Assembly (NCBI GenBank): GCA_964035575.1
Contig: OZ037839.1
Span: 620,001 to 684,000 of the forward strand
From: Rhynchopus sp. YZ270_cl-10
Taxonomy: Eukaryota
Reading direction: 5' to 3'
Length of the DNA: 64,000 nt
The first letter of the stretch is position 1. Every line of letters begins with the position of its first letter. The notes beneath the pieces are model-generated. The model was not told where the DNA came from and made no database searches. It saw nothing but the letters and a program-made list of their open reading frames with translations. The position numbers were made by a program, and so were the translations under genes. Positions 13,224 through 55,600 of the stretch are shown piece by piece.

Positions 13224-14076
13224 TGTTTCGAGTGAAGTGTTGCTCTGTTGTGGGGTGGTGTTGAGAAGGAGGAGGAGGGAGGCAAGATACAACAAAATAG
13301 CTTTCTTATTTGCCTTTCAAGAGGCAGCGACATTGCAGTTGTGTCAACACGTTTGTCCTGGCGCAAAAGAAGGCAAGAATGCAGAAAAGGATAAGCTCAT
13401 ATCGGCAGACCACAACTCGCTTCGCAAGGAAGAAAAGAAATGAGAATTTGAAACGTCGTGCACACACATCTTTACCACCATCGTTATCGCGCTGGAACAC
13501 GTTGTGTTTGAAGATAGGCTGTCTGTCTATCACAAACGTGCTTTTCATGGAATCAGTGTTTTATTTCCCACCCCAACAACAACGATAAAGCGTGAAGACA
13601 ATAGATAAAAGCAAATAAGTAATTTTTAGGTTTTGTGAGGCACTCAACGAAGTATGCCGGCTCTGTGGCGTCACGGAGCCACCAACACTCCCCAGTCATT
13701 TTTCCTGCGCATCCAGGAAAACTCGCAGTATGCGACCAGGAAACGAAAAGATTTTTCTTCACAGTAACAAAGTGTGAGGAAGAAGAAAAGAAAGCGAATA
13801 AAAACGAAAAAACAGTGTTTTTCTGAATGTGATGTTGTTGTTGGGGTGAGGAGAATAAAACAGTTCCAAGAAAAGCTCCTGCGTCGGTTTTCTTTTGGTT
13901 AAAAAAAATCATCCGAGAACCGGATTGTATGCTTACATCAGTCTCATGCAAACCTGCTAAGACTTATCCAGATTTGGAATGTTCTTATGGATCGGATCAC
14001 CTGCGCCTGCTTTGCCCCAACCTTCGTGCAGCAGTAGCAGTGTTCGTGGTGACCGAGGCGCTGTCTCATCGGCATA

Positions 14077-14544
14077 TTATGCTTCTGCACACCCTTCCCC
14101 TTTTTTTTTCGCCTTCTCCATCACTGTGTCGTCATACTCATCAGCAACAAACGCAGGGATTGTGTGCCCCGATGCAATCAGAAGCGCGACGGCGTCACGC
14201 CTGACTGAAGGGTGGATCCGATCTGTTGCGGGGCGGGGAAGAAGCTTGAGGACGATGCCGGGTGCTGGGAGGACCACGTCTCGCACGAAGGCCTCATCGT
14301 CAAAGAGCTGCGATGGGAAGAAACGTACGATGCGTCTCCTCCGTTGGGCAAGCTTCTGCAGCAACACCTTGTCCCGACGCAACGCTGGGCTGAGACAGCG
14401 GTACACCTCACGTGGCGACACATCCTTGCAGTTTGCGATCCGCACTGCGGGGCTCAGTGCAGAAACAGTCATGAGTCCTGTGTGATGCAGCGTTCGCATG
14501 GGGTAAAAGCTGCAGTGTGAAAGGGCTCCCATATACAGCTTCAT
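14077..14544 (-). CDS. 155-aa hypothetical protein, possibly DUF4116-like (copy 1 of 3)
   Basis: Intact in three near-identical copies. YRCLSPALRRDKVLLQKL...RFFPSQLFDDEAFVRDVV resembles the DUF4116 repeat pattern. Confidence 0.5.
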   Translation of the reverse strand: MKLYMGALSHCSFYPMRTLHHTGLMTVSALSPAVRIANCKDVSPREVYRCLSPALRRDKVLLQKLAQRRRRIVRFFPSQLFDDEAFVRDVVLPAPGIVLKLLPRPATDRIHPSVRRDAVALLIASGHTIPAFVADEYDDTVMEKAKKKGEGCAEA

Positions 14545-14883
14545 GGAAAGAAGTTCACGAAACGAACGTAAGCCTCTCGTGCGTGGTCACATTGAAAAAG
14601 TGAAACAAAGTGAAATACCCCCCATTCTCTATTTTGCTGTCGTCCTGCTCTTTGTTCATCGTATCCATCCTCTTTGAAACCCCAAAAGACCCGAAAAACC
14701 CTGGAAACCCCATATTGAAAAACCTACTGTGAGGAAGAACTGAGAGTCTCATTACAAGGGTGGAGTGAAATGAACCGGTGGCAAGGTGAAGGCCATCCAT
14801 TTGTGTTGCAACCTCCACCACCCGCCCAAACACACCCAATAATCCTAACACCCCAATTCCCACTCCCGCTTTCTTTACTGGCC

Positions 14884-15835
14884 CTAAAAACCAACGTCAC
14901 CTAGTCTGCTGCGTACAACGTTGCTACACTTGTCCATTCCGTCTACTTTCGACAACCTTTTGCAGTTGTAGAGAAACCTACCACCAATCGTGGTGACTGC
15001 TTGCAGGCCGGTGAAGTCCACTTCCGACAACGATGTGCAGTTGTAGAGAAACCCCTCACCAATCGTGGTGACTGCTTGCAGGCCGGTGAAGTCTACTTCC
15101 GACAACGATGTGCACTCGGAGAGAAAATCATCACCAATCGTGGTGACTTCTTGCAGGCCGGTGAAGTCCACTTCCGACAACGATGTGCAGTTGTAGAGAA
15201 ACCCCTCACCAATCGTGGTGACTGCTTGCAGGCCGGTGAGTTCCACTTCCGACACCACCATCAGCTTTTCAGGGATGACCAATGTGACGGATATTGAAGA
15301 CAGCTTTTGTGCGGACTGCAACATTTCGCAGTTGTAGAGAAAATAATCACCAATCGTGGTGACTGCTTGCAGGCCGGAGAAGTCCACTTCCGACAACGAT
15401 GTGCAGTTGTAGAGAAACCCCTCACCAATCGTGGTGACTGCTTGCAGGCCGGTGAAGTCCACTTCCGACAACGATGTGCAGTTGTAGAGAAACCCCTCAC
15501 CAATCGTGGTGACTGCTTGCAGGCCGGTGAAGTCCACTTTCAACAACGTGCTGTTGGAGAGAAACTTGTCACCAATCGTGGTGACGCAGGGTAATGCAGG
15601 CAGGTGCAGTGTGATGCCACAGTTGTCCTCCACATTGGGTACGCAACTGAAACCAATGCGCGTTACGTCACTACGTGAGAAGAACTCTTCTGGAATCTCA
15701 GTCGCAACTTCTGCCTGAAGAAGCAAGCTGGCCACCTTCGGATCGTCCACCTGCTGCAACCTTTCTGCTGTGATGTTTGTCTCACCCAATGCATGAAGAG
15801 CTGATATGGCTTCGTACTTCATCGTTTTCGTCAAC
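14884..15835 (-). pseudogene. 3' (linker + LRR) half of the UBL-LRR gene interrupted by the retrotransposon
   Basis: Begins LTKTMK-YEAISALHALGE, i.e. continues the 5' half at 24845-25056. It has 8 LRR units and is near-identical to copies at 26372, 30812 and 48644. Confidence 0.9.
15817..15835. repeat. Target-site duplication, copy 1 (cttcatcgttttcgtcaac)
   Basis: An identical 19-mer lies at 24844-24862; the intact paralog (~49439-49457) has a single copy. Confidence 0.95.
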
Positions 15836-15905
15836 CGTGGGGGCCCGTTTTCGATGCATGCACCCCTATCCGAGATAGGTGATACAATACATCGTGGAGG
15901 TGATG

Positions 15906-18900
15906 TTACATAAGTCCATCACCGCCCCTGCTGTGCCCATCCTTCTGCTTCGTCTGCTTCTTCTTGAAGAAGCCTCCCAGCGTCGTCTGTCGCCCCTTCG
16001 AGGTGTCGTGGTGGCGGCGGCAGCAGTGATCCAGCGTACTCTTCTCTTGCACACAGTTCCCGCACCTCGAGAGTCTATGCTTAGTGCATGCTTCGTGTCG
16101 GATCGGTAACCCGTCGTCGTTGGAGTGGTGCGCAAAGCAGCAATGCATCAGGTCTGCCTGGGCGTTCTTCGAGCAGGCATCACACTTCGTCTTCCGGTGC
16201 AGCACACATATCGCAAACTGGAAGATCGGAACCGCTCCTTCAGGTGCCTTCACGGGTGCGTCCCCTGGACGCACGTGCTCATGGTGCCGGTAGCGAGCAT
16301 GCGCAGATGTCTCCTGTTCAGCCCGCTGGATGAATGGTAGTGCCCTCCTGCCCCTAACTTCTGTGGAGGGGTACGCCGTCTCAGCAGAATACTCCCCCAT
16401 CCATGTACCTCTCGCTCTATCGCCACCACGGAGCTCCGCCTCAGACATGCCTTCGGAGCTGCGTTGCAGACGGTACGCCACACCAGCATCGTATAGCGCA
16501 CGCAATGCCTTCAACGTTTCTTCTCCGCCGGCAAAGATAGGACGGCGGTCGATGCCTGTGATGGCGTTCGCCCCAAACGAAGCGAGAACATGCGTTACCT
16601 TCACCTTCCCCGGATGGAGAGAGCTCTCCGAAAAGGTTCTGAGTGAAGCCAACATATGCCCAAAGGTGGTCGTCTTCGCCATTTCTCTGTGGACCAGCGC
16701 TACTGGCACCACGTCGTCATCATCGTCGTCTTCCTCACTCCCGTCGTCTTCCCCCCCATTGTTGACTTCTTCCCCAGTCCCATCCCTCGGCTGCTTCAGC
16801 TTCGGCGCTATTCTGCCGGTCTTGTCCCCAGGTCGGATGTCCATCCCTGTGGCAACCTCGAAGTCGATGAGCAGCTCCATGTGGGAGACTTCACGTCCAG
16901 CTTCGTCGCTCCATTGTAAACCACCCAGCCAGGAGGCAAACGCCAGCAGCAGCGCACGTCCATACGGCCACCTCCTTTTCAGGGGGGTGTAGTCCACCAA
17001 ACTGTTCGCGTGTTGCGTCGTCGTGTCCAACTCCGGCGCCCACGTCCACGGGTATCGGTCTTCTTGCAGTCGCGGGTTCGCCGCTTCCGGTCTGCTCCAC
17101 TTGGAGCGTGCGATGAGGATGCGCACCATCATCTTCTGCAGGTCTGCAACACGGGCGCATTCCAAAGGTGTGTCCGGTGTGCACATGCCGCAGATAGCGA
17201 GACAGTTTGGCCAGGTCGTTCTGTCAATGTCCAACAGCAAGGGGTACTCCGCACGAATGCTACTCCATGCTTCACATTCCCACCACAAGTGTTTGTGATT
17301 TTCGTCCACCCCCGCTTCGCAGTGCACGCAGATGGCCGAGTCCCGTATGCGCGCTCTCGCAAGTCGCACCCCCGTTATCGCACCGTCAGCTACAATGTGT
17401 CGCAGCGTCCCCGCCTCGTAATCCGTCAAAGTTTTGCTTCGGGTGAGAGCAAGGGTTTTCTCCTTATCCACCCCCGCTTCAATACCCTTCAGGTTAGCTC
17501 TGCCTTTGCCATTGGCCTTCGCAGTCGTCTTCGTACGGGAGAGTCGAATGAAGAACATCCGTTCTCGCACAACGTGGCCCAGTCTGCCCAAGCTTACTGT
17601 CTTCACATCAACGATGCTCCCATCGTGCGTTTTCACTTTTGTCGTGTCTATCCATGACCACGCAAGGCGGCTGAGGGCTCGCGCAATCAACCCGATGGGT
17701 CCTCCAGTCTTCGCCTGCTTCGCTTTCGCACGTGACCTGCACTTTTCGACCAGCAAACAGATCTCATCCGATTTGCGTATCATCGCCGCCCACGTCATGA
17801 TCCTTCTGTAGTCGAATGCCACCGAGGGGTCGAGCAGATGGCCTTTCTCGAAGACATTCAGCATGACCGGTACGCTTCTTCGGTTCATCTTGTTCACGCC
17901 GTGGACCCCTTTCTCCACTGCAGTTGCAAGACTGTTCACGTATTTCCCAGGTGGGTCCTGCACCGTGATACCGTACACAGATTTCGACATCACTGCAGCC
18001 TGCATGATGCCTGCTTTCTCACCTTGAGTCAGCGGGAGGCATCCCACCTTACCTGCTAGCGGTCCGCATGCGTCGATGGTGTCTTCCAGCTTCGTCGGGA
18101 GCGTGGGCGTCCCAGCCTGTCGGGCCTGCACCGTCGCCCCCAGGCACTCCGACTTCTCGACGCGAGTAAGATCCGCGCCGTTCATCTGCACAGTTTCCTC
18201 TTCATCAGGACGGTTGCTCTGCCACGTGCTCTTCCCCGCGTGGACGCGTTGTCCCGTCAAGTCTGCAAAGTGTCCGGTGAAGGCGACACCCGCTCGCAGC
18301 TGGTCGAGGGTCTTCGTCAGGAGGTTGGTGTCGTCAGCATACGCCAGCCCCTGCGTGCCCGTTTCCTTCTCCACCCCGTTCATCCACACCGCCACCAGCG
18401 CATTCAGGAAGATTACGCTCAGTGGGCATCCTTGGAGGATACCATTCGTCGCAAACCATTCTTTGCCAAGACCTGCCGGAAGTTTGAAACGCCTCCCCAG
18501 CTTCTTGTATATACCCCGGATGGGGCGCATCATGTTGTCGGGAAGACCCAACCGTTCGACGAGCTGGAACATGATCTCTTGGGGAACACGGTCAAAGCAC
18601 TTCTGATAGTCGAAGGAGGCTAGATAGATAGGTGTGTCGTCTATCAGAGCCTCCTCCATCTTCGCACAGAGAAACCACAGCAGGTCTTCGGTTCCGTGTT
18701 TGTTCCGGAAGCCGTGTTGCCGCTCGTGAATCCAGGATTCCTGCCACGTCGCCACTTTGCGGAGTCGAGTCGCCGCCCATAACCTGTACATCACACTGGT
18801 GATGGTAATGGGTCGCTGCTTCAGGGGCTCCTCGCCTTCTCCTTTGGGGATGAGCACCACCAACGCCCTCGCAATCACCCTGGGCCAGTTCCCAGTATCC

Positions 18901-19397
18901 TCGATCAGGTTCAGGCAGCGCGCGAGTTCCTCCAGCAGTGTCAAAGGCAGTTCCTTCAGCTCCTCCACCCTCCACCCATCGAGGCCTGCCGCCTTTTTCC
19001 GCTTCATCTTGCCGATGGTCGTACGGAGGTCTTCGGCGGTCAGGGGTTCGCATACACAAGGGGCCCCTTCAGGAATGTGTTCCTTGAACCTATCAAAGAA
19101 CGTCGTCCACGCAGGTTCTTCGGAATCGTCGTACATCCGGAACACCCCACCCCAAGCACGGTCATCCATGAGCAGTTCATCCATCTCCTGGAGGTTAGCT
19201 GTAACCGTGCCGTCCTCCCGTTTCAGGAACGTGGTGTGTGACGACGTAGCCTTCCGCAGGAACGAGAACACCTTCGCTGGGTTCACCTTCATGTGTTCCT
19301 TCATTGTGCGGCGCCATTCCTTGATGCGGGCCCGACGCCGTTGCTCCAGCAGGACAAAACCCCTCTTCTTCAAGCAGCCAAGGCCCACACAACGCCT
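15906..19397 (-). CDS. ORF2 C-terminal part: reverse transcriptase, zf-RVT-like finger, tandem Cys/His module, PIP box (frameshifted relative to APE)
   Basis: Motifs KAAGLDGW, RPITIT, QHGFR, FDYQKCFDRV, GILQGCPLS, YADD and CVHC..ENHKHLWWEC, with C-terminal QTTLGGFF. Confidence 0.93.
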   Translation of the reverse strand, partial: RRCVGLGCLKKRGFVLLEQRRRARIKEWRRTMKEHMKVNPAKVFSFLRKATSSHTTFLKREDGTVTANLQEMDELLMDDRAWGGVFRMYDDSEEPAWTTFFDRFKEHIPEGAPCVCEPLTAEDLRTTIGKMKRKKAAGLDGWRVEELKELPLTLLEELARCLNLIEDTGNWPRVIARALVVLIPKGEGEEPLKQRPITITSVMYRLWAATRLRKVATWQESWIHERQHGFRNKHGTEDLLWFLCAKMEEALIDDTPIYLASFDYQKCFDRVPQEIMFQLVERLGLPDNMMRPIRGIYKKLGRRFKLPAGLGKEWFATNGILQGCPLSVIFLNALVAVWMNGVEKETGTQGLAYADDTNLLTKTLDQLRAGVAFTGHFADLTGQRVHAGKSTWQSNRPDEEETVQMNGADLTRVEKSECLGATVQARQAGTPTLPTKLEDTIDACGPLAGKVGCLPLTQGEKAGIMQAAVMSKSVYGITVQDPPGKYVNSLATAVEKGVHGVNKMNRRSVPVMLNVFEKGHLLDPSVAFDYRRIMTWAAMIRKSDEICLLVEKCRSRAKAKQAKTGGPIGLIARALSRLAWSWIDTTKVKTHDGSIVDVKTVSLGRLGHVVRERMFFIRLSRTKTTAKANGKGRANLKGIEAGVDKEKTLALTRSKTLTDYEAGTLRHIVADGAITGVRLARARIRDSAICVHCEAGVDENHKHLWWECEAWSSIRAEYPLLLDIDRTTWPNCLAICGMCTPDTPLECARVADLQKMMVRILIARSKWSRPEAANPRLQEDRYPWTWAPELDTTTQHANSLVDYTPLKRRWPYGRALLLAFASWLGGLQWSDEAGREVSHMELLIDFEVATGMDIRPGDKTGRIAPKLKQPRDGTGEEVNNGGEDDGSEEDDDDDDVVPVALVHREMAKTTTFGHMLASLRTFSESSLHPGKVKVTHVLASFGANAITGIDRRPIFAGGEETLKALRALYDAGVAYRLQRSSEGMSEAELRGGDRARGTWMGEYSAETAYPSTEVRGRRALPFIQRAEQETSAHARYRHHEHVRPGDAPVKAPEGAVPIFQFAICVLHRKTKCDACSKNAQADLMHCCFAHHSNDDGLPIRHEACTKHRLSRCGNCVQEKSTLDHCCRRHHDTSKGRQTTLGGFFKKKQTKQKDGHSRGGDGLM

Positions 19398-20910
19398 CTA
19401 TCCCAGGAAGGTCGAGGTCCCAGGTGTCACTCTTCAGTAGATGCTTCTTCTTGCGGATTTTCGCCCACAGCTGCCGTTCGTTCAACGATTCTGCAGATGG
19501 CTGACCGAAGCGCTTCCTCCGATCACCAATGAGCTGCTCCATCTGACGACATGTCTTCTGCAGTTGAGCCGTCTCCAGGTTCACAGCATCCGGCGTGTCG
19601 CAGTCCATGCGGGCCGTCCGATGTCGGAGAACGTCGGGTTGCACCTCCCCTCTCCCCCTGTGGCGTTGTTGCTTCGGGTCTGAGTCTGCAGCACCTCTCT
19701 TCAGCAGGTAGTCCTCCGCAATCTTGCAGAAGCGTGCCCAGCGATCTTCAACCGACATCTTCGTCAGGTCGGCTTCAGGGGCAGCGTTCTCCTGCATCAC
19801 CTTCGCTGCAAGCTCCTTCTCCTTCTTCGCCGGCCATTTCGTCCAGTCGTCGCCGATCAAAGAAAGGGGAGGGCGTGCCTGCGGTGCCTTCTGCTCGTAT
19901 CGCGTCAGGTCTAACGTCAACACCACCGGTCTGTGTACCGGGAGGCAGCTCTCTTTCCAGACCACCACTTTGGAGATCGCAGGGGCAGCCACGTGGTTCG
20001 CCAGCACCAAGTCGATACGTCTGCCAGACGATGTGGAGGTATAGCATGTGTTCTCTGCTGCCTTACCCAACTGCTGTGCGTAGGTATCTGCCGCATCAAC
20101 CCATTTGCCGGAGGAGATGGCCGCTCGAATGGCTAGACTTTCGTTAGCCTCTACGTTGAAGTCTCCGGCAATGAACACCGGTATGTCCCCAAGGCTGGCT
20201 GCTTCTTCAAAGATGCCTGTCAGGAGTTGCTCCGTGCGGTCGCTGTCAGCACACACACCATAAAACGAGAACACAGAGATGTTACGTCCCCCGCTCCCAT
20301 ATGCCACCTGCGCATGCGTAAAGCGGCATTCGTTCCACGCTTGTTGGGCACATTGTGGCGGTACTGCTCTGGTCGGTATGTCAGCGCACGTCATGATCGC
20401 AACTCCACCATTCTGCGTGCGCGTGCGCAGAGGGTCTGATCCCTGGCTTCGTCTGCAAGGGGCACCAAAGAGAAGCTGCTTGGCACCATACCCCTTCACG
20501 TCGTTTGCTGCCCCCTTCATCTCTTCTTCTGTGAGGCGCACCTCCTGCAGAGCACAAACGTCCACATCCCACTCCCCCACCGCAGGGTGTGCCCTCAGAG
20601 ACGTCACGTTTGCCGTGCCAAGCGACATGGTCGACGGACCCGGATGCTCCTCCACGTCTCCACATGTCAGCAGTGACCCCCTGCCCAAAAACGCCCCTCG
20701 TCGCCTCCCTCGACGCACCCTGTGTCCGACCCCTCGCCCCACCCCCCTTCGCGTTCTACCCTTACCCCTTGTCCCCGACAGCATACAGCCCGCAGAGCGC
20801 AAACGATGCTGACCCCTTGTTGGGGAGACAGTTTTCACAAAAACGTCTCGTTCTCCAACTACGCACGAAGAAGCCAATCCTGTGCCGTACCCTTCCACCG
20901 CACCACACCG
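19195..20910 (-). CDS. ORF2 N-terminal part: linker, 2A-like peptide and apurinic endonuclease (APE) domain
   Basis: GRGSLLTCGDVEEHPGP followed by TANVTSL, ALQEVRL, IAGDFNV, RRIDLVL and PVHRPV. The frame opens immediately after the ORF1 stop. Confidence 0.88.
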   Translation of the reverse strand, partial: RCGAVEGYGTGLASSCVVGERDVFVKTVSPTRGQHRLRSAGCMLSGTRGKGRTRRGVGRGVGHRVRRGRRRGAFLGRGSLLTCGDVEEHPGPSTMSLGTANVTSLRAHPAVGEWDVDVCALQEVRLTEEEMKGAANDVKGYGAKQLLFGAPCRRSQGSDPLRTRTQNGGVAIMTCADIPTRAVPPQCAQQAWNECRFTHAQVAYGSGGRNISVFSFYGVCADSDRTEQLLTGIFEEAASLGDIPVFIAGDFNVEANESLAIRAAISSGKWVDAADTYAQQLGKAAENTCYTSTSSGRRIDLVLANHVAAPAISKVVVWKESCLPVHRPVVLTLDLTRYEQKAPQARPPLSLIGDDWTKWPAKKEKELAAKVMQENAAPEADLTKMSVEDRWARFCKIAEDYLLKRGAADSDPKQQRHRGRGEVQPDVLRHRTARMDCDTPDAVNLETAQLQKTCRQMEQLIGDRRKRFGQPSAESLNERQLWAKIRKKKHLLKSDTWDLDLPGIEALCGPWLLEEEGFCPAGATASGPHQGMAPHNEGTHEGEPSEGVLVPAEGYVVTHHVPETGGRHGYS

Positions 20911-23900
20911 TCACCGCCCCACATCGCGCAGGGTGTTGCGGCCTACCAACCTGTTGTCTAGTCCCTGGACGGGACGAAACGCGATCTCGATGACGTCCCC
21001 CGCTACCTTCACGACAGTCACCGGGATGGCTGCGCCGTTGCCTCCCTCCTCGCAGTACTCCATGGAGTCGCCAGCCTCCAGCACTGCGTTCCCGTACGAC
21101 TCCTCGTTCTTCTCGTTCCCCTCCGCCTGCTCTTTTGCGGGGACTTCCGTCCGCATCCTGCGCGGCGGACTCAGCAGCGCCACCGTCTCACCGGACTCAC
21201 TGCGGTCTTCCCGCTTGCCCGCCAGGGTCACGGCAGGTGGCGCCACCGGCACTCTGGGAGCTGGCGAGGTCTCCGCGTCCTCCTCGACAGCCGCACAGTC
21301 TGGCGATGTCTGCACCGGCAGTGCCATGTCGGCGTCGTCCATCCGTGCCTCGGCGTCTGGTGTCGTGGGTGCGGGGGTCCCTGCGCCGGCGTTCTCCCCT
21401 TGCTCCTGCTCACGTTGTGCCTGCACTGCTGCAGCACGTCTCTCCTTCTTTGCCGCCGCTTCTTCCTGTGCTGCCCGTAGTGCCTCCCGTCGTTTCTCAG
21501 CGGCCACAATGTTCCTGCGTTTCTTCTTCTTCTTCGGGGACGCCACCACTACCTCCACATCACCGGCGCCAGCAACGTCCGCAGTCGGCGATGTGTCCCT
21601 GGGCGGTGCTGACCGCGACCGGTTCCGTGCTTCGGCGACTTCTACGACTACCCCCGGCTTTCCACGGATGGTGTCAGCCCTCCTCCTCCTGCGGCGCGGG
21701 CTCAGCTCCTCAACCTCACTGGACCCATTTCCCGCACGTATCCGCTTACCTGCCATCGTTGCGGGCTCCGGTGACATCACGTCCTCGGCATTCCCGTCTG
21801 GGAGTGTGTCCAACAATTCATCCGCCATCTGCATCTCGGGTGTTGTGGGCGCTGCAGTGGGCACTGCGACAGTCGGGGCCGTAGTAGCAGCAGCCTCCCC
21901 CTCGCGCTGCCTGGCGTTCTCAGCAGCAACTGCAGCAGCGGCGGCGGCGGCTTCCTCCTCCTGCTGCCAGAGGATTGCAGCAGCAGCGTCGGCTTCCTCA
22001 CGCTGCTTGAGGACTGCAGCAGCGGCGGCCTTCTCCTCCTCCTCACGCTGCCTCAGGGCTGCAGCAGCAGCGGCCTTCACCTCCTCCTCGCGCTGCTTGA
22101 GGGCTGCGGCAGCGGCGACCTCCTCCTCCTGCCTCAGGGCTGCAGCAGCAGCGGCCTTCACCTCCTCCTCACGCTGCTTGAGGACTGCAGCAGCGGCGGC
22201 CTTCACCTCCTCCTCACGCTGCCTCAGGGCTGCAGCAGCAGCGGCCTTCACCTCCTCCTCGCGCTGCTTGAGGGCTGCAGCAGCGGCGGCCTTCGCCTCC
22301 TCCTCACGCTGCCTCAGGGCTGCAGCAGCGGCGGCCTTCACCTCTTCCTCACGCTGCTTGAGGACTGCAGCAGCAGCGGCCTTCGCCTCCTCCTCACGCT
22401 GCCTCAGGGCTGCAGCGGCGGCGGCCTTCGCCTCCTCCTCCTCCTCCTGCCTCAGGGCTGCAGCAGCAGCGGCCTTCACCTCCTCCTCACGCTGCTTGAG
22501 GACTGCAGCAGCAGCGGCCTTCGCCTCCTCCTCACGCTGCCTCAGGGCTGCAGCGGCGGCGGCCTTCGCCTCCTCCTCCTCCTGCCTCAGGGCTGCAGCA
22601 GCAGCAGCGGCGTCCTCTCTCGCAGCAGCCGTGGCCTCCTTCGGCATGGAACAGAGCTTGCCCACTTGCTCCAGCATGGCCGCCATCCACACCTGCTGCT
22701 CCTTCCGTTGCTCCACCCGTTCTTCCCGCAACTGGGCCGTCAGCGACGCCACCGTCTCCTGCAGCAGGGTCTGGAGGCGCTCGCCCACCAGGCGGTCCAA
22801 CCTCTCCTCCATCCGGCGCTCCAACTCCGCCCACTTCTCGCCTGCGTCCTCAGGTGATGGGGCGGGCGACGTCATTGGGGGTTGACCCTTCGGCGTCCGT
22901 TGCTTCGTTGTTGTTGTTGTTGTTGGTGGAGGTGTCCTTGATGTGGTAGTGGGTGGCTTCGCTGCAGCTGGCGCTGTTGCTGCTTGGCGTGCGTGCGCAG
23001 CCCAGGACACCCAACCGTAGTCGGGCCCAGTGCCACGGTTGTGCTGCGCTGTCGCCGCCGGCGCCGTCCGGGCACCAAATGTCGGACCAGACGCATGTGC
23101 GGTATGTACCTTGGCCTTCTGTTTCGCCCCCGGACCCGGAGCCGTTGCCCTACCCCCGCCCTCCTTATGCCCATCCTTGCGGATCAGCAGCCCCTTCCCG
23201 TTCCCCTCCATGTCCATGGCCCACGTCGGCGGATCCAGCTTCGCTCCCACCACCCAACGCCATCCCTCCAGCCTCCGCAGCGGCGTCACCGTCCACCCTG
23301 CGCCTGCCAGCGACTCCATCACCGCTTCACCGGACGTACCCGACGGGAAACCGGACACCACGTATCGACCTTCGGGCGCCTTTCCCTCCTGCATGAGTGC
23401 CGCATTTGCACGCTCCTGATCCTCCTTCTTCACCCGTATCCCCAGGGACTCGTACCTCGCCGCCACTCCCCATCCCCCCATCCGGGTCGCCAGCCCCTGG
23501 GCCTCTTCTAGCCCCACCCCGTCCACCAACCACACGACAGGCAGATGCTCCGACTGCTCGCGTCTCATCCGGAAGAAGACACCCCCCTTCCCACTCTGCT
23601 TCAGGCAGCGCTCTGCTACGTCCTCCCTTACGTCGGCCACCGAGGAGATCAGCTTACCCTCCTGCCACAATGGTGGGCGGTTGAGGTTGCACCCCACCTC
23701 CGCACGCATCTTCTTCCCCGCTGACACCAGGTCCTGCGCTTGTCCTGCTGTCGGCCTCATCGTCACAAACACCGTCACCAGTTGGACGGCCGCCGACGCC
23801 TTCTTCCCCCCGTTTCCTCTCCCCGGCCTCAGCCTCCCCACCACGTACACGGCCGTGCTCGCCGCCCCGTTCACCTTCCCCCCATTCCCCTGCTTACCCA

Positions 23901-24723
23901 TGGGGCACTGCATCTTCTCCCCACCAGACTTCGGGAAGGACCCGAAACCCACCCACGTCACGCCCGGCGTGCGCGCGATCTTCCCCTCTGCCTCTACCTC
24001 TCTACCCTGCGGCACAAGACAGACCCCCTCCGACTTATCCACCACCTCCCCCCACGGCACAAGCGTCGATCCCACCCACTCCGATTGCAGCAATGTCAGC
24101 GCTGCCGTCGTCTTCTTTTTCCCTCCCCCCTGGGTGAAGCCCCCCTCCGTCCCCGCCTTCGCATCGTTTCGCGGTTGCGGCACGGTGTACGGCTTCTCCG
24201 TCACCTCCAACGCACCCCCCACCATCGCCTTGCGGGCCCGGTCTTCGGCGGCTTCTTCCCCCGTGCTCGTGGGGAGGACGCACAGGTAGTGGCATGCGTC
24301 CACGTACGCCACCGTCACCGCTGCACCGCTGCCCTTCTCCTTCGGGTGCACCTTCAGCACACGCACCTCCCCATCCTTCACCGAGAAGGCATACACCTCC
24401 CGCATCAGCACCTCCGCCAACGCCTTCAGGGTCAGGTGGTCCCCCCAGGACCCCTGCTTCGCCATCGCCGAGCAGTACCTCCGGTAGGCGGACGGTCCTC
24501 CGTCAACGTGCTCACCCCAATTCTCCGCTTCCCGTTCCAACACCCCCACCGCCATCTCCCTCAGCCCCCCGTGCGCCGTGGCGTCTCCGTGCACAGCCAT
24601 CGAGACCGCCTTAAATTGGCAGTCTCCGTTCCCCCCTGCGTCCTTTACCCGCATGTCGAAGCCCCTCAGGTATTTCTGCAGCACCCCCTTTTCCCCCCCT
24701 TGGCCACCTGCCCCTCCGCACAT
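20911..24723 (-). CDS. Retrotransposon ORF1: OTU-family cysteine protease, RRM-like region, Ala/Glu-rich coiled coil
   Basis: GGNGDCQFKAVS...WGDHLTLKALA...AYVDACHY is an OTU catalytic Cys/His pattern; RYVVSGFP is an RNP2-like motif; it also carries (KAAAAAALRQREEE)n. The first element-internal ATG is at 24723. Confidence 0.82.
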   Translation of the reverse strand: MCGGAGGQGGEKGVLQKYLRGFDMRVKDAGGNGDCQFKAVSMAVHGDATAHGGLREMAVGVLEREAENWGEHVDGGPSAYRRYCSAMAKQGSWGDHLTLKALAEVLMREVYAFSVKDGEVRVLKVHPKEKGSGAAVTVAYVDACHYLCVLPTSTGEEAAEDRARKAMVGGALEVTEKPYTVPQPRNDAKAGTEGGFTQGGGKKKTTAALTLLQSEWVGSTLVPWGEVVDKSEGVCLVPQGREVEAEGKIARTPGVTWVGFGSFPKSGGEKMQCPMGKQGNGGKVNGAASTAVYVVGRLRPGRGNGGKKASAAVQLVTVFVTMRPTAGQAQDLVSAGKKMRAEVGCNLNRPPLWQEGKLISSVADVREDVAERCLKQSGKGGVFFRMRREQSEHLPVVWLVDGVGLEEAQGLATRMGGWGVAARYESLGIRVKKEDQERANAALMQEGKAPEGRYVVSGFPSGTSGEAVMESLAGAGWTVTPLRRLEGWRWVVGAKLDPPTWAMDMEGNGKGLLIRKDGHKEGGGRATAPGPGAKQKAKVHTAHASGPTFGARTAPAATAQHNRGTGPDYGWVSWAAHARQAATAPAAAKPPTTTSRTPPPTTTTTTKQRTPKGQPPMTSPAPSPEDAGEKWAELERRMEERLDRLVGERLQTLLQETVASLTAQLREERVEQRKEQQVWMAAMLEQVGKLCSMPKEATAAAREDAAAAAAALRQEEEEAKAAAAAALRQREEEAKAAAAAVLKQREEEVKAAAAAALRQEEEEEAKAAAAAALRQREEEAKAAAAAVLKQREEEVKAAAAAALRQREEEAKAAAAAALKQREEEVKAAAAAALRQREEEVKAAAAAVLKQREEEVKAAAAAALRQEEEVAAAAALKQREEEVKAAAAAALRQREEEEKAAAAAVLKQREEADAAAAILWQQEEEAAAAAAAVAAENARQREGEAAATTAPTVAVPTAAPTTPEMQMADELLDTLPDGNAEDVMSPEPATMAGKRIRAGNGSSEVEELSPRRRRRRADTIRGKPGVVVEVAEARNRSRSAPPRDTSPTADVAGAGDVEVVVASPKKKKKRRNIVAAEKRREALRAAQEEAAAKKERRAAAVQAQREQEQGENAGAGTPAPTTPDAEARMDDADMALPVQTSPDCAAVEEDAETSPAPRVPVAPPAVTLAGKREDRSESGETVALLSPPRRMRTEVPAKEQAEGNEKNEESYGNAVLEAGDSMEYCEEGGNGAAIPVTVVKVAGDVIEIAFRPVQGLDNRLVGRNTLRDVGR
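21950..22610 (-). repeat. ~45-nt coding minisatellite (KAAAAAxLxQREEEx)n in ORF1
   Basis: More than a dozen imperfect 15-aa units seen directly. Confidence 0.9.
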
Positions 24724-24759
24724 CGCGTCGAGGCTGCCCCCCGCCGCCGTCCTTCTTCC

Positions 24760-24844
24760 CCGCGCTTTAGCAGACGCCTCCCCCCATAGAGGAGGGGGGC
24801 GTCTCCCGAGGGTACCCCGTGGAGGCGCGTCGTCTCTCACCCTC
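24760..24844 (-). ncRNA. HDV-like self-cleaving ribozyme at the retrotransposon 5' end
   Basis: Minus strand: P1 GAGGGU/ACCCUC; P2 CG(A)CGC/GCGCG; P3 GCC/GGU; L3 UCCACGG; P1.1 CC/GG; P4 AGACGCC..GGCGUCU; J4/2 GCUAAA. G1 coincides with the TSD boundary. Confidence 0.8.
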
Positions 24845-25056
24845 TTCATCGTTTTCGTCAACACGACTGTGTCTCCAGCACTCAGTTCTGTGATGTCCTC
24901 TCCTTCCTCCTTCCCTCCGAAGCCCATGCGGAAGCTGTCTTCGCACAACCCTGTTGCAGTCGCCACCTTCTGCCGCATCGTCTCCGTTGTGTCGTTCTCA
25001 CCCACCTCAATCACGAATTTGGTGTCATCATCATATCCCTGCACAAACAGTTCCAT
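24845..25056 (-). pseudogene. 5' (UBL) half of the interrupted UBL-LRR gene, in frame with retrotransposon ORF1
   Basis: MELFVQGYDDD...VVLTKTMK runs without a stop into the element sequence RVRDDAPP. Confidence 0.9.
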
Positions 25057-25563
25057 TGTTTCGGGTGAAGTGTTGCTCTGTTTTGGGGTGGTGTTGAGAA
25101 GGAGGAGGGAGGCAAGATACAACAAAATAGCTTTCTTATTTGCCTTTCAAGAGGCAGTGACATTGCAGTTGTGTCAACACGTTTGTCCTGGCGCAAAAGA
25201 AGGCAAGAATGCAGAACAGGATAAGCTCATATCGGCAGACCACAACTCGCTTCGCAAAGAAGAAAAGAAATGAGAATTTGAAACGTCCTGCACACACATC
25301 TTTACCACCATCGTTATCGCGCTGGAACACGTTGTGTTTGAAGATAGGCTGTCTGTCTGTCACAAACGTGCTTTTCATGGAATCAGTGAAAAAAATCATC
25401 CGAGAACCGGATTGTATGCTTACATCAGTCTCATGCAAACCTGCTAAGACTTATCCAGATTTGGAATGTTCTTATGGATCGGATCACCTGCGCCTGCTCT
25501 GCCCCAACCTTCGTGCAGCAGTAGCAGTGTTCGTGGTGACCGAGGCGCTGTCTCATCGGCATA

Positions 25564-26031
25564 TTATGCTTCTGCACACCCTTCCCCTTTTTTTTTCGCC
25601 TTCTCCATCACTGTGTCGTCATACTCATCAGCAACAAACGCAGGGATTGTGTGCCCCGATGCAATCAGAAGCGCGACGGCGTCACGCCTGACTGAAGGGT
25701 GGATCCGATCTGTTGCGGGGCGGGGAAGAAGCTTGAGGACGATGCCGGGTGCTGGGAGGACCACGTCTCGCACGAAGGCCTCATCGTCAAAGAGCTGCGA
25801 TGGGAAGAAACGTACGATGCGTCTCCTCCGTTGGGCAAGCTTCTGCAGCAACACCTTGTCCCGACGCAACGCTGGGCTGAGACAGCGGTACACCTCACGT
25901 GGCGACACATCCTTGCAGTTTGCGATCCGCACTGCGGGGCTCAGTGCAGAAACAGTCATGAGTCCTGTGTGATGCAGCGTTCGCATGGGGTAAAAGCTGC
26001 AGTGTGAAAGGGCTGCCATATACAGCTTCAT
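25564..26031 (-). CDS. 155-aa hypothetical protein (copy 2)
   Basis: Near-identical to 14077-14544. Confidence 0.5.
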   Translation of the reverse strand: MKLYMAALSHCSFYPMRTLHHTGLMTVSALSPAVRIANCKDVSPREVYRCLSPALRRDKVLLQKLAQRRRRIVRFFPSQLFDDEAFVRDVVLPAPGIVLKLLPRPATDRIHPSVRRDAVALLIASGHTIPAFVADEYDDTVMEKAKKKGEGCAEA

Positions 26032-26371
26032 GGAAAGGAAGGTTCACGAAACGAACGTAAGCCTCTCGTGCGTGGTCACGTTGAAAAAGTGAAACAAAAT
26101 GAAATACCCCCCATTCTCTATTTTGCTGTCGTCCTCTCTTTGTTCATCGTATCCATCCTCTTTGAAACCCCAAAAGACCCGAAAAACCCTGGAAACCCCA
26201 TATTGAAAAAACTGCTGTGAGGAAGAACTGAGAGTCTCGTTACAAGGGTGGAGTGAAATGAACCGGTGGCAAGGTGAAGGCCATCCATTTGTGTTGCAAC
26301 CTCCACCACCCGCCCAAACACACCCAATAATCCTAACACCCCAATTCCCACTCCCGCTTTCTTTACTGCCC

Positions 26372-27379
26372 CTAAAAACCAACGTCACCTAGTCTGCTGC
26401 GTACAACGTTGCTACACTTGTCCATTCCGTCTACTTTCGACAACCTTTTGCAGTTGGGAAGAAAATAGTCACCAATCGTGGTGACTGCTTGCAGGCCTGT
26501 GAAGTCCACTTTCGACAACGATGTGCAGTTGCAGAGAAACCCGGCACCAATTGTGGTGACTGCTTGCAGACCGGTGAAGTCCACTTCCGACAACGTTTCG
26601 CAGTTGTAGAGAAAATCATCACCAATCGTGGTGACTGATTGCAGGCCGGTGAAGTCCACTTCCGACAACGATGTGCAGGAGAAGAGAAAAGAATCACCAA
26701 TCGTGGTGACTGCTTGCAGGCCGGTGAAGTCCACTTCCGACAACATTTTGCAGTTGCAGAGAAAATAATCACCAATCGTGGTGACTGATTGCAGGCCGGT
26801 GAAGTCCACTTCCGACAACGTTGTGCAGTCGGAGAGAAACCCGTCACCAATCGTGGTGACTGCTTGCAGGCCGGTGAAGTCCACTTCCGACAACGGTGTG
26901 CAGTTGTAGAGAAACCCGCCACCAATCGTGGTGACGCAGGGTAATGCAGGCAGGTGCAGTGTGATGCCACAGTTGTCATCCACATTGGGTACGCAACTGA
27001 AACCAATGCGCGTTACGTCACAACCTGAGAAGAACTTTTCTGGAATCTCAGTCGCAACTTCTGCCTGAAGAAGCAAGCTGGCCACCTTCGGATCCTCCAC
27101 CTGCTGCAACCTTTCTGCTGTGATGTCTGTCTCACCCAATGCATGAAGAGCTGATATGGCTTCGTACTTCACCGTTTTCGTCAACACGACAGAGTCTCCA
27201 GCACTCAGTTCTGTGATGTCCTCTCCTTCCTCCTTCCCTCCGAAGCCCATGCGGAAGCTGTCTTCGCACAACCCTGTTGCAGTCGCCACCTTCTGCCGCA
27301 TCGTCTCCGTTGTGTCGTTCTCACCCACCTCAATCACGAATTTGTTGTCATCATCATATCCCTGCACACACAGTTCCAT
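26372..27379 (-). CDS. Ubiquitin-like domain + LRR protein (7 LRR units)
   Basis: Intact ATG-initiated ORF with 75-nt repeats encoding LSEVDFTGLQAVTTIGxxFLxxC. Confidence 0.9.
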   Translation of the reverse strand: MELCVQGYDDDNKFVIEVGENDTTETMRQKVATATGLCEDSFRMGFGGKEEGEDITELSAGDSVVLTKTVKYEAISALHALGETDITAERLQQVEDPKVASLLLQAEVATEIPEKFFSGCDVTRIGFSCVPNVDDNCGITLHLPALPCVTTIGGGFLYNCTPLSEVDFTGLQAVTTIGDGFLSDCTTLSEVDFTGLQSVTTIGDYFLCNCKMLSEVDFTGLQAVTTIGDSFLFSCTSLSEVDFTGLQSVTTIGDDFLYNCETLSEVDFTGLQAVTTIGAGFLCNCTSLSKVDFTGLQAVTTIGDYFLPNCKRLSKVDGMDKCSNVVRSRLGDVGF

Positions 27380-29545: not shown

Positions 29546-30002
29546 AACAAAATGAAAACGCTATTTGAACAAGAACAACAACAAGCTTCAAGGGTGGGAT
29601 GGTGGGATTTTTAAAAAAAGATGAAAAGCAGAGAGTTAAAAAAGGAGAAAGAACAGCAAAAAACGTTGTGTGAAAAAGTTTTTTCCTGTCAAGTGTTTTT
29701 GTGCGTTAGCGGAGAAGAAAACAGTTTTCGATAAAAGACTCCTGCGTCGGTTTTCTCTTTCACAGAAAAAACCTCCACTCTCATTTCGCAAGCTTCATTT
29801 CCGTTTTGGTTTTCTCCTCACAGAAAGAAATCATCCGATAACCGGATTGTATGCTTACATCAGTCTCATGCAAACCTGCTAAGACTTATCCAGATTTTTG
29901 TGGAATGTTCTTATGGATCGGATCACCTGCGCCTGCTCTGCCCCAACCTTCGTGCAGCAGTAGCAGTGTTCGTGGTGACCGAGGCGCTGTCTCATCGGCA
30001 TA

Positions 30003-30470
30003 TTATGCTTCTGCACACCCTTCCCCTTTTTTTTTCGCCTTCTCCATCACTGTGTCGTCATACTCATCAGCAACAAACGCAGGGATTGTGTGCCCCGATG
30101 CAATCAGAAGCGCGACGGCGTCACGCCTGACTGAAGGGTGGATCCGATCTGTTGCGGGGCGGAGAAGAAGCTTGAGGACGATGCCGGGTGCTGGGAGGAC
30201 CACGTCTCCCACGAAGGCCTCATCGTCAAAGAGCTGCGATGGGAAGAAACGTACGATGCGTCTCCTCCGTTGGGCAAGCTTCTGCAGCAACACCTTGTCC
30301 CGACGCAACGCTGGGCTGAGACAGCGGTACACCTCACGTGGCGACACATCCTTGCAGTCTGCGATCCGCACTGCGGGGCTCAGTGCAGACACAGTAATGA
30401 GTCCTGTGTGATGCAGCGTCCGCATGGGGTAAAAGCTGCAGTGTGAAAGGGCTCCCATATACAGCTTCAT
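30003..30470 (-). CDS. 155-aa hypothetical protein (copy 3)
   Basis: Near-identical to the other two copies, with the frame preserved. Confidence 0.5.
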   Translation of the reverse strand: MKLYMGALSHCSFYPMRTLHHTGLITVSALSPAVRIADCKDVSPREVYRCLSPALRRDKVLLQKLAQRRRRIVRFFPSQLFDDEAFVGDVVLPAPGIVLKLLLRPATDRIHPSVRRDAVALLIASGHTIPAFVADEYDDTVMEKAKKKGEGCAEA

Positions 30471-30811
30471 GGAAAGAAGTTCACGAAACGAATGTAAGCC
30501 TCTCGTGCGTGGTCACGTTGAAAAAGTGAAACAAAATGAAATACCCCCCATTCTCTATTTTGCTGTCGTCCTGCTCTTTGTTCATCGTATCCATCCTCTT
30601 TGAAACCCCAAAAGACCCGAAAAAACATCGAAAACCCGCGTATTGAAAAAACTGCTGTGAGGAAGAACTGAGAGTCTCATTACAAGGGTGGAGTGAAATG
30701 AATCGGTGGCAAGGTGAAGGCCATCCATTTGTGTTGCAACCTCCACCACCCGCCCAAACACACACAATAATCCCAACACCCCAATTCCCACTCCCGCTTT
30801 CTTTACTGCCC

Positions 30812-31666
30812 CTAAAAACCAACGTCACCTAGTCTGCTGCGTACAACGTTGCTACACTTGTCCATTCCGTCTACTTTCGACAACATTTTGCAGTTGGAGA
30901 GAAAATAGCCACCAATCGTGGTGACTGCTTGCAGGCCGGTGAAGTCCACTTCCGACAACGTTGTGCAGTTGGAGAGAAACCCGCCACCAATTGTGGTGAC
31001 TGCTTGCAGGCCGGTAAAGTCCACTTCCGACAACGATGTGCAGGAGAAGAGAAAATAATCACCAATCGTGGTGACTGCTTGCAGGCCGGTGAAGTCCACT
31101 TTCGACAACGTTGTGCAGTTGTAGAGAAACCCGCCACCAATCGTGGTGACTGCTTGCAGGCCGGTGAAGTCCACTTTCGACAACAATGTGCTGTTGGAGA
31201 GAAACCCGCCACCAATCGTGGTGACGCAGGGTAATGCAGGCAGGTGCAGTGTGATGCCACAGTTGTCATCCACATTGGGTACGCAACTGAAACCAATGCG
31301 CGTTACGTCGCTACGTGAGAAGAACTCTTCTGGAATCTCAGTCGCAACTTCTGCCTGAAGAAGCAAGCTGGCCACCTTCGGATCGTCCACCTGCTGCAAC
31401 CTTTCTGCTGTGATGTCTGTCTCACCCAATGCATGAAGAGCTGATATGGCTTCGTACTTCACCGTTTTCGTCAACACGACAGAGTCTCCAGCACTCAGTT
31501 CTGTGATGTCCTCTCCTTCCTCCTTCCCTCCGAAGCCCATGCGGAAGCTGTCTTCGCACAACCCTGTTGCAGACGCCACCTTCTGCCGCATCGTCTCCGT
31601 TGTGTCATCCTCACCCACCTCAATCACGTACTCCTTTTCTCCAAAACCCTGAACAGTCAGTTCCAT
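30812..31666 (-). CDS. Ubiquitin-like domain + LRR protein (5 LRR units)
   Basis: MELTVQGFGEKEYVIEVGEDD... start, with the same LRR class as 26372. Confidence 0.88.
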   Translation of the reverse strand: MELTVQGFGEKEYVIEVGEDDTTETMRQKVASATGLCEDSFRMGFGGKEEGEDITELSAGDSVVLTKTVKYEAISALHALGETDITAERLQQVDDPKVASLLLQAEVATEIPEEFFSRSDVTRIGFSCVPNVDDNCGITLHLPALPCVTTIGGGFLSNSTLLSKVDFTGLQAVTTIGGGFLYNCTTLSKVDFTGLQAVTTIGDYFLFSCTSLSEVDFTGLQAVTTIGGGFLSNCTTLSEVDFTGLQAVTTIGGYFLSNCKMLSKVDGMDKCSNVVRSRLGDVGF

Positions 31667-52600: not shown

Positions 52601-55600
52601 ACCACATGACAACACTTGACATGACCATGACAAATACATGAAACAACACACAATAAAACAAAGCGTGTAACGACAGCTTCTTTGCCATAATAAAGTGTTC
52701 GCCGTTCGTGCACACCTCCGCAGGGATCGATGTGATGGGGGTGCAGATATGGGGTGGGTGTGGAGGGTGGAGGGGCAGATGTGATCAGCAGTTCAGCCGG
52801 TTCTCGAGCTTTCTCGCTTGCGACTCGGAGGTTTTCAAGTCATGCTGGATTGTGGCCTGTGTAAACTCATCTTCCAGACCCATCTTCTGGTGCATTGTGT
52901 GCGCTTCCTGCTCATCATTGTACTCCTGCTGCAACTTCGATGCTGAGAGAGGGAAAGTGTCATTTTTTTTTTTTTGAAAACTTGGTTGTATTAGTGTAGC
53001 CACCCTAGAGTGTGCTCCACTATATATTTTTTTTTTGTCCCGGCAATTGCAGGGCTATTTCTAAAAACCTGTCCCTGTCCCTGATTTTTGGAAAATGAAA
53101 GTTGCCAAAAAAATTGCACGGGGCTTATATACAGGACTGCCAAAAAATTTGCACGTACTACAGTACTTACCAAGAGGGGGGGATGGGCTTTCTGCTTGCA
53201 GAAAGTTGCCGATTTTTTTTTGTGTTGAAAAGTTTTCTTCCAGATTGTGCAAGACACGGGGGTTTTGGTGTATTCTGAAAAATCCTAGAGGGCGCACCAG
53301 GCCGCGTGCCGGAGGCACTATGAGGGGGTTTCTTAGAAAACTTGTTCTCTACACTAATATCACACCGACACCGTACTCATTTTAACAAAAACCAAGAACT
53401 TGCCCAATTCTGCAAATTGACCCCACACAGAACGGGCGGATTCCGGAAATGCAAATGCCGGTGTTTTCGTGCATTTTCATGTTTCAGGATCAGGGAGAGA
53501 AAATCTGGGTTGTGGGATTTACCTTGGCCCCTTTACCTTACACTCATTTTGACCAAAACCAAGAACTTGGCCATTTCGGCAAAGTGACCCCACCACAGCG
53601 CGGACAGATTCCGGAAATGCCAATCGCAGTATGTTTTGGGGCTGAAAAATTTTCAGAGTAAAATTTTTTTGAGCAGCATTTTTTGGCCGAAAATGGGCCC
53701 CACATATTAGTGACCGGGCTCATATTTTCAAAAATTTAAGTGGTCAAAAAATTGTCCAATTTTCGAGATTGACCCCATCACTGTGCGGGTGGATCCCAAA
53801 AATGCAAATAAGGACGTTTTTGGCACAAAATAAATCTGCCAAAAAAATTGTGTCCCGGGTTGGATTTTGGGCCCCCCGGACCCCATATTTAGAAATAGCC
53901 CTGGGCAATTGCCTAACCCTGGTGGATAACTGAGGGGTGAAAAGAATAGAAAACGACTTCAGGATAATGACAGTCGAAAAGAAAACACTTTTTCCGTTTA
54001 TGATGGTGTTTTTCGCCAAAATTCAGGAAGAAAAGTGAGAACATCGAGGCACCGAGGTCCAGTCGGCCGACCGAGAGGGGAGGGGGGATTCGACGGGAGC
54101 TTCGCGGGAAGACAAAGTGAAAAAATTCTTCTCTGATTAACTGCCATCTGCAAATGCTGTGACACAGGGTTTTTATGTTGTGAAGGAGTGCGATACTAAA
54201 ACCCGCCTGAGTCTGACGCCAATCGAATGTGCACGTTGACATACACAGCGATGTCATGAAGAGCAACAGTGTTGCTAAGACGGATCCTCTGGCTGAACTG
54301 GCTGAAGGGGGATGAAGTCTTACGCGGCACTACGTGCGATAAGCAGACACATTCAAGCGAGGGGGCGAGAAAAGGTAAATATATTTCGGATTTTTCGGGC
54401 AGATTTTTCGGGCGCGGGTCCCGATCCGCCTGTTGAAAAACACCACTGTGTATCGAAGCATCGAAGGATGGACGCAGATGTCGAAAGCGGCAAGGAAAGA
54501 GAATGGTCAATGGGGGTCGTCACGAGCGCCTACCCCGCTGCTAAAGTCTTTTCTCTTCTCTTCTGCACCGCACACACCTGCCGCATCGGAACGTCCGACG
54601 AAGACGAGATGTGTTGCCGTGTCTGTTTTGATGGTACAATTGTACAATCCAGACACTATTTGTTTGTGTCTGCGTTTCCTCGTTGTATTGCCCCCTTTTG
54701 TATTATTTGTATTTGCCCTTCCTAACCCCCATCAGAGAGAGGCCACCCAAAAAAAGTTTTTTTCCCTGGATTTTCGACTCCGTGAAAAGGCGCGAAGAGG
54801 AGAGGAAAAAATGCCAAATTATTTAATAATGTGTTTTTAACGTAGATGATGCCAGCTTTGTTGTTGTGTCATTACATACCCAGGGCTTCATCAGACTCGT
54901 ACTGCTGAACCTTCTTCACAACGTCTGTCATTTCGAGTGATGTACGTGTGGTGTTATCCTGCAGGTGGGTGGGGAGACAAAAAAAAAAAGGTGAAATAAT
55001 TTGCAGGAACTGAAAAAAGATCATGGGCATCCCTTTTTTGTTGTATCAGCAACCACTTTACACCTTACTGGTTGAAAGATCTGCACTCAATGTCTTTTTA
55101 ATAACTTTTTTTTTGTGATAATCTGTCTCGCCTATTCACAACTACGTACAGTCTTTCACCATCATTTTTTTCTCTTTGATCTAGCCTGCTCTTGAGGTGG
55201 CTTTCATTTGTGGGTACGACAAAGTGAAGGTGATAGTGCAAAACGCCTCTGGGACGCAGGCACTCATGACACCCCGCCTTCGCTGTATTTCATTTTTGTG
55301 GATGCAATTTTTGTGTGCACTCTTTGGCTGATGCCGTGTCGACACCTCGATTTTTTGTTTAGTGTGAACTCCACGTATTTTTTATTTCGCAAAAAATCGG
55401 ATCCATGCATGAAAAATCTTTTCATTTCAATAACAACAACAACGCGATACTACATACGAAAACTCATTCCCCCAAAGCAAATTGGGGGAGAAAAACAAAA
55501 TAAAAAATAAAAATAAACAGAAAAGAGGGTCAGGGGGATTTGACATAACTAACCGAAGGGAGGGTTTGAAAGTTTGTTTGTTTTGTTTTTGTTTTTTTGT

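Follow-up and report, generated by a model that had tools for sequence, protein, structure and literature searches.

Two groups of non-LTR retrotransposons, L1Tc/ingi and R2, carry active ribozymes at their 5' ends (PMC3185411, PMC4035085, PMC3774820). HDV-like ribozymes are nested double pseudoknots of P1, P1.1, P2, P3, and P4 (PMC4908430), in which J4/2 holds the catalytic C and structure is conserved rather than sequence (PMC10879173). R2, which has a restriction-like endonuclease and the 28S rRNA target, is site-specific in a repeated, host-transcribed gene and has its RNA released by a 5' HDV-like ribozyme (PMC3774820). In the L1Tc/ingi elements of trypanosomatids (Pr77, L1TcRz), the HDV-like fold starts at +1, the element encodes an APE endonuclease and a reverse transcriptase (RT), and the host genes lie in co-directional clusters. 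L1Tc has a 2A-like motif before the endonuclease, with an N-to-H variant in 20% of L1Tc (PMC3708506). The ingi clade has a 12-bp target-site duplication and poly(A) (PMC3820030, PMC12278014) as well as RNase H (PMC12278014), and ingi/RIME occupy one position in the protein multigene family of Trypanosoma RHS genes, where they split the gene (PMC7563717). The Tx1 and R1 clades have APE endonucleases specific for multicopy sequences; the targets listed are rRNA, spliced leader, tRNA, and snRNA genes, transposons, microsatellites, and telomeres, with no protein genes among them (PMC4640811).

Here we describe a LINE-type retrotransposon on the minus strand of the window, which is the whole 64,000-nucleotide stretch of DNA that was analyzed. 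Read from the sequence, the 84 bases that start at its first base show the complete arrangement expected of an HDV-like ribozyme. It resembles L1Tc/ingi in having this fold from +1, APE and RT domains, and a host setting of co-directional clusters, and it resembles L1Tc in the 2A-like motif that precedes the endonuclease. Unlike L1Tc/ingi, it has a separate ORF1 with an OTU domain, and unlike the ingi clade, it has a duplication of 18 to 19 bp, no poly(A), and no RNase H match in ORF2 (none at E ≤ 0.5 in the intact ORF2 proteins P0103 and P0110). No named L1Tc or ingi RT was found among 91 RT matches (7,994 candidates scored). Like ingi/RIME in RHS genes, it splits a gene at one position of a protein multigene family, but its target and the element itself are unrelated to RHS and apparently also to ingi, and its full-length copies fuse in frame, in contrast to the nonsense and frameshift outcomes of ingi/RIME. 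While ingi is only relatively site-specific (PMC3820030), here the readable heads belong to a single family in eight of eight cases. The likeness to R2 would lie in site specificity within a repeated, host-transcribed gene and in a putatively RNA-releasing 5' ribozyme; unlike R2, this is an APE element in a protein gene family, and an APE endonuclease specific for a multicopy sequence is what it would have in common with the Tx1 and R1 clades. Among the matches listed for the open-access text searched, we found no closer precedent than the ingi/RHS hot spot and no report of a non-LTR retrotransposon ORF1 with an OTU (ovarian tumor) domain. No ribozyme report for diplonemid-like LINEs was found either, and the Diplonema papillatum genome paper never uses the word "ribozyme" in its main text.

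Architecture of the element and its host locus

The full-length element occupies positions 15836 to 24844 (9,009 bp, ending without a poly(A) tail), and it has the features of an APE-type non-LTR retrotransposon, namely, APE and RT domains, a target-site duplication, and 5'-truncated copies. It and the host gene described below are read on the minus strand. The ORF1 frame (20911 to 24843) is open from the base after G24844 (G1), with its first own ATG at 24723, and encodes an OTU domain (about 24633 to 24289; E = 9.1e-10) and an array of 45-nt Ala/Glu repeats (about 22653 to 21881). The copy number of this array differs among otherwise identical copies, with ORF1 fusions of 1,276 to 1,425 amino acids. 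ORF2 contains the 2A-like motif GDVEEHPGP (20635 to 20661), an N-to-H variant of the motif defined in PMC3708506, which reads GDVEENPGP in the sister subfamily. It is followed by an apurinic-type endonuclease domain (19954 to 20583; Exo_endo_phos, E = 1.2e-10) and the RT core (18201 to 18851; RVT_1, E = 1.5e-19). Compared with the unbroken 1,664-residue P0103, ORF2 is split by a frameshift between 19357 and 19391, in this copy or in this assembly. A short 3' UTR with a hairpin (15836 to 15905; z = -2.34, with 5 of 200 shuffles as good) abuts the target duplication.

The nearest named RTs among the 91 matches are from D. papillatum (48%), and in a quick RT tree, built with no named clade references, the element falls in a clade of nine rows with two D. 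papillatum RTs. The ORF2 subfamilies P0103 and P0110/P0111 are almost identical over their first 90 residues and only about 75 to 80% alike in endonuclease and RT, a mosaic likeness that suggests recombination. Both have copies at the insertion site described below. OTU domains occur also in the related elements P0009, P0032, P0043, P0119, and P0268, and some OTU-bearing relatives combine it with endonuclease, RT, and RNase H in one ORF; the domain seems to be a recurrent trait of the lineage.

The element splits a gene for a protein with a ubiquitin-like (UBL) head and BspA-type leucine-rich repeats (LRR). The 5' half (24845 to 25056) holds the start codon and the UBL domain, in frame with ORF1; its ubiquitin match (E = 0.00094) is under the Pfam cut-off. 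The 3' half (14884 to 15817) has BspA-type repeats, as do the intact paralogues. Both halves match the paralogue at 49 kb in the window around the insertion site, five intact targets of the family lie inside the window, and a search with the UBL head returned 117 proteins. Near-identical intergenic blocks at 13902 to 14947, 25389 to 26435, and 29828 to 30875 show that the UBL-LRR array surrounding the insertion was recently duplicated in tandem. Three divergent UBL-LRR paralogues, P0161 (a cluster of eight), P0196, and P0239, share another insertion, unrelated to the retrotransposon, whose read-through tail is identical in all three and has no match in the window. This insertion sits at one position about 20 codons downstream of the retrotransposon site and is possibly another site-specific element of the UBL-LRR family. 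Elsewhere in the window, positions 10113 to 11483 form a unit bounded by terminal inverted repeats of 33 bp (85% complementary). Inside it are a 28S rRNA fragment (Rfam, 10341 to 10500) and a long 7-bp tandem array, and the unit resembles a non-autonomous DNA transposon that has picked up rRNA sequence. In D. papillatum, 28S pieces are scattered in their thousands (PMC10161547).

The element is bounded by a 19-bp direct repeat (24862 to 24844 and 15835 to 15817), the last G of which is G1. The 5' copy of the duplication (24845 to 24862) has 18 bp, or 19 if G24844 is counted, and the 3' copy (15817 to 15835) includes the shared G at 15817. The latter also contains an ATG whose frame continues into the LRR half and from which the split gene could in principle give a headless LRR protein. 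Taken alone, the window is compatible with both 18 bp plus G1 and 19 bp, the two options left by the sequence-only reading. Truncated copies bear on this choice, as read from their proteins rather than DNA and assuming joins free of indels: if the host sequence ends two bases into a lysine codon, the element base at the truncation point would supply the third. For P0171, P0203, P0097, and P0159, the predicted junction residues were K, K, K, and N, and K, K, K, and N were seen; P0002, a truncated copy of the sister subfamily, has N too. A 19-bp duplication predicts K in all five truncated copies, which is right in three and requires a lost base in two. We therefore favor, from the junction residues of these five copies, an 18-bp duplication with G1 probably belonging to the element. 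One contig from sequencing run X7 (depth 2) has an extra G at the junction, a host G next to the element G, which a pure 18-bp cut leaves unexplained and which may be an error.

A predicted ribozyme at the first base

From 24844 to 24761 on the minus strand (84 nt, with 24761 the true 3' end of the fold), every element of the HDV-like nested double pseudoknot is present in order, as pairing possible in the sequence. P1 (24844 to 24839 with 24813 to 24808) consists of six Watson-Crick pairs beginning with G1-C and is followed by a J1/2 of 6 nt. P2 (24832 to 24827 with 24765 to 24761) has five pairs and a bulged A24830, P3 (24826 to 24824 with 24816 to 24814) has three pairs including one G-U, and the 7-nt L3 (24823 to 24817) reads UCCACGG. 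P1.1 is formed by two pairs, of C24822 and C24821 with G24806 and G24807, and P4 (24804 to 24772) has 7 + 6 = 13 pairs. J4/2 is GCUAAA, with the equivalent of the catalytic C at 24770. The core residues of HDV are thus all represented, by C24770 with its downstream A in J4/2 and by U24823 and G24818 in L3; we take U24823, G24818, and C24770 to be the counterparts of HDV U20, G25, and C75. The sequence-only reading had described this fold, from the 6-bp P1 and the bulged-A P2 to J4/2, and had placed G1 at the exact 5' end of the element. All of the elements were found again, in the same order, and G1, 5' of which the cut is predicted, coincides with the edge of the direct repeat.

The P1 of R2 ribozymes has about 7 bp, versus 6 here (PMC3774820). 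In many R2 ribozymes the cut falls upstream, within the host, whereas the P1 of this element pairs only at the boundary: the base preceding G1 is an A, unable to lengthen P1, and an upstream P1 in the host was ruled out, 24844 being the only position within 150 nt that pairs.

The sequence-only reading had proposed a search with an HDV descriptor. Our descriptor encodes HDV features and was written after the match at 24844 had been seen. With a P2 of at least 4 and a P4 of at least 3 pairs, 24844 was the sole match on both strands of the window (128 kb); when the P4 requirement was dropped, two more A/T-rich matches sharing one common core appeared at 54367/54369. Among 85,813 dinucleotide shuffles of the surrounding 2-kb region (176.5 Mb), there were 145 loose matches and one with a P2 of at least 5 and a P4 of at least 7, thresholds that are the values of the 24844 match itself. 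At 0.8 matches per Mb, a loose match on the right strand and at most 1 nt from the element boundary is expected about 2 to 3 times per million. Rfam, on the other hand, which holds curated families only, gave no match for the ribozyme at the gathering score or at E ≤ 10; on the window it found the 28S fragment only, and on positions 24600 to 25000 it gave two chance-level matches.

The nested folding energy is unremarkable (z = -0.95, with 35 of 200 shuffles as good). In ViennaRNA, which is unable to form pseudoknots, P4 has a probability of at least 0.97 in 12 of 12 flank contexts. P1 has a probability of 0.72 alone and at most 0.02 with 50 added downstream bases (four of four contexts), and the nested minimum-energy fold prefers a 5-bp P3 at the expense of L3. 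Given the complete set of fold elements and the rarity of the descriptor match, yet also these Rfam, energy, and ViennaRNA results, we consider self-cleaving activity of the predicted ribozyme likely.

It is conceivable that the fold cleaves poorly or never in its context and that the 5' end comes from a Pr77-like internal promoter or from reverse transcription that copies the junction. The competing pairings in the ViennaRNA folds speak for this, as do the dual nature of Pr77, both promoter and ribozyme (PMC3185411), and the inactivity of some well-folded trypanosome homologues (PMC4035085); the stretch also doubles as an open reading frame, which could account for its conservation. We regard this as improbable in view of the full set of catalytic-core positions and of the A before G1, which leaves P1 nothing to extend into, and decay of the ribozyme is unlikely since the element family is young.

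Recurrent insertion at one codon

The sequence-only reading had overlooked that the insertion site is, to judge from protein junctions, not incidental, with the same codon recurring in many paralogues. Eleven element copies, six full-length and five truncated, are joined to different UBL/LRR paralogues at one codon. The full-length fusions are P0137 (the window copy), P0138, P0139, P0143, P0144, and P0146; the truncated ones, P0097, P0159, P0171, P0203, and P0002, reach the same codon from five different truncation points. For copies other than that in the window, the evidence on the site consists of 5' junctions read from proteins. The fused heads are 50 to 96% alike, and for 9 of the 11 no other fused head is closer than the nearest uninterrupted paralogue, while the six full-length copies differ by 0 to 1 residue across the first 700 residues of ORF1. 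This combination of diverse heads and a nearly identical ORF1 start argues for recent independent insertions rather than duplication of one.

Spread of one old insertion by duplication, recombination, or gene conversion, or a long-read misassembly, appears far-fetched. In RHS genes, crossing-over on the upstream side of the insertion site reshuffles the pseudogenes (PMC7563717), and most of the fused proteins here have longest-contig figures in common and probably come from one assembly. Neither process fits well with five different truncation points meeting the same codon, with heads that differ in up to half of their residues next to an identical ORF1, or with a window copy that has a perfect duplication and both of whose halves match the paralogue at 49 kb around the site.

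Six of the 11 fusions came from the 117 UBL matches, a search biased toward finding them. A less biased count starts from the element's own clusters, of which 31 members were listed (15 of the 34 members of the main RT cluster are included): nine were flagged for a foreign head, one of these, P0104, was dropped as an element variant, and the remaining eight heads were all UBL ending at the codon, while 22 members lack a foreign head and are uninformative on the site. Two further candidate junctions were rejected. P0217 leaves the host at residue 68 with a tail that matches nothing in the element or the window, and P0240 leaves it at residue 81 with a tail that matches host LRR genes. Contigs of runs X1, X3, and X7, within 4 of the 12 listed runs, show a further paralogue variant beside the element's 5' end. 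Only the X7 contig, from another study and at depth 2 (contig depth is not copy number), passes the bridging bar of 31 letters; X1, which may be the source sample, reaches 29 letters into the host.

In favor of strict specificity, all 11 UBL junctions lie at one codon and all 8 foreign heads are UBL, but 22 of 31 members are silent. With a real ribozyme, the site could instead be no more than a hot spot for an endonuclease of loose specificity, with many copies elsewhere, which we think distinctly unlikely. The ingi clade combines relative site specificity with a hot spot in RHS genes (PMC3820030, PMC7563717), the 22 uninformative members leave room for other sites, and a divergent family, described below, stands behind non-UBL sequence; moreover, the unrelated second insertion recurs in UBL-LRR genes, so that the family may simply collect insertions. 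Yet all eight foreign heads are UBL, and a random flank should presumably often give an upstream in-frame start, of which none was seen.

A second point that the sequence-only reading had missed is that the ribozyme stretch is, as judged by its reading frame, an open bridge from the host UBL to ORF1. In all six full-length copies, the frame set by the host start codon stays open across the ribozyme and on into ORF1, while the remaining two frames across the stretch contain stops.

Distribution among relatives

No DNA homologue of the ribozyme was found: 0 of 70 metagenome loci had a descriptor match, and viral contigs had none. Seven of these loci have APE and one distant locus has OTU, and the close ones stop before OTU or a recognizable 5' end; when 13 of the 70 were searched with a relaxed descriptor, a single match appeared, poor and rich in wobble pairs. 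Among 1.84 billion representatives searched with ORF1, no additional peptide encoded by the ribozyme stretch turned up.

The most informative relatives are the family of P0141 and P0148, about 50% diverged in ORF1. Across the stretch encoded by the ribozyme, 22 of its 29 residues are identical, after which the linker diverges, and it keeps the frame despite a one-codon difference. Eight base changes are forced in the 84 nt, none of them in P1, P3, L3, P1.1, or J4/2. Three fall in P4, where all seven pairs stay possible, as they do in 608 of 3,000 random three-residue changes, and four of the five P2 pairs survive. We treat this as weak covariation at the peptide level. Sequence upstream of this family is non-UBL in two of two readable cases, which would mean that the ribozyme predates the choice of the UBL target.

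Proposed mechanism

We propose that the ribozyme frees the element RNA from the host transcript and that copies target one codon of UBL/LRR genes, a reading to which we give a probability of roughly 0.72. The host, which is probably a euglenozoan of diplonemid-like type, would transcribe the gene array co-directionally through the element, co-directional gene clusters being described for D. papillatum (PMC10161547), and the ribozyme would cleave before G24844 while being made; such release from a host co-transcript is proposed by analogy with R2 and L1Tc. The endonuclease would recognize its target in the conserved end of the UBL coding region and nick the strands about 18 bp apart, and nick-primed reverse transcription would run to G1, giving a full-length copy, or end early, giving a truncated one. 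Landing in sense in another of more than 100 family genes would again bring host transcription at a low cost to the host. The sequence-only reading had added that release would sever the host UBL mRNA; this is of minor consequence, the host gene being split by the 9-kb insertion in any case.

A further-reaching version, which we consider unlikely and hold tentatively, has a strictly sequence-specific LINE with a protein-gene target and the ribozyme acting as a switch, with uncut RNA giving a UBL/OTU-deubiquitinase fusion and cut RNA serving as template. Uncut transcripts, still carrying the spliced leader and start codon of the host, would be translated across the stop-free ribozyme into ORF1, cut transcripts would begin at G1, and read-through into the host 3' half could supply target-matching RNA instead of a poly(A) tail. 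All six full-length fusions are in frame, as this version expects. However, a single fixed site makes the six in-frame fusions one event, with a chance probability of about 13% (one third of the fraction of shuffles with an open frame, 1,965 of 5,000), which is why we rank the switch low, and two ORF1 proteins begin at an internal Met.

Implications

The predicted ribozyme itself belongs to a known type, that of R2 and L1Tc/ingi; what is new is the protein-gene target and the in-frame fusion. The locus extends a known device, the 5' ribozyme, to a LINE lineage of diplonemid-like protists. Should the proposed reading hold, the homing of an APE element to a single codon in a family of more than 100 paralogues would establish a new class of target. 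Subject to confirmation of its clade, the element would also represent a natural site-specific integrase that belongs to none of the R2, R1, and Tx1 groups. The in-frame fusion offers a testable answer to the question of how uncapped retrotransposon RNA yields proteins in a trans-splicing host. For the host, if the proposed reading is true, insertion at the UBL codon would be a source of turnover in the UBL-LRR family.
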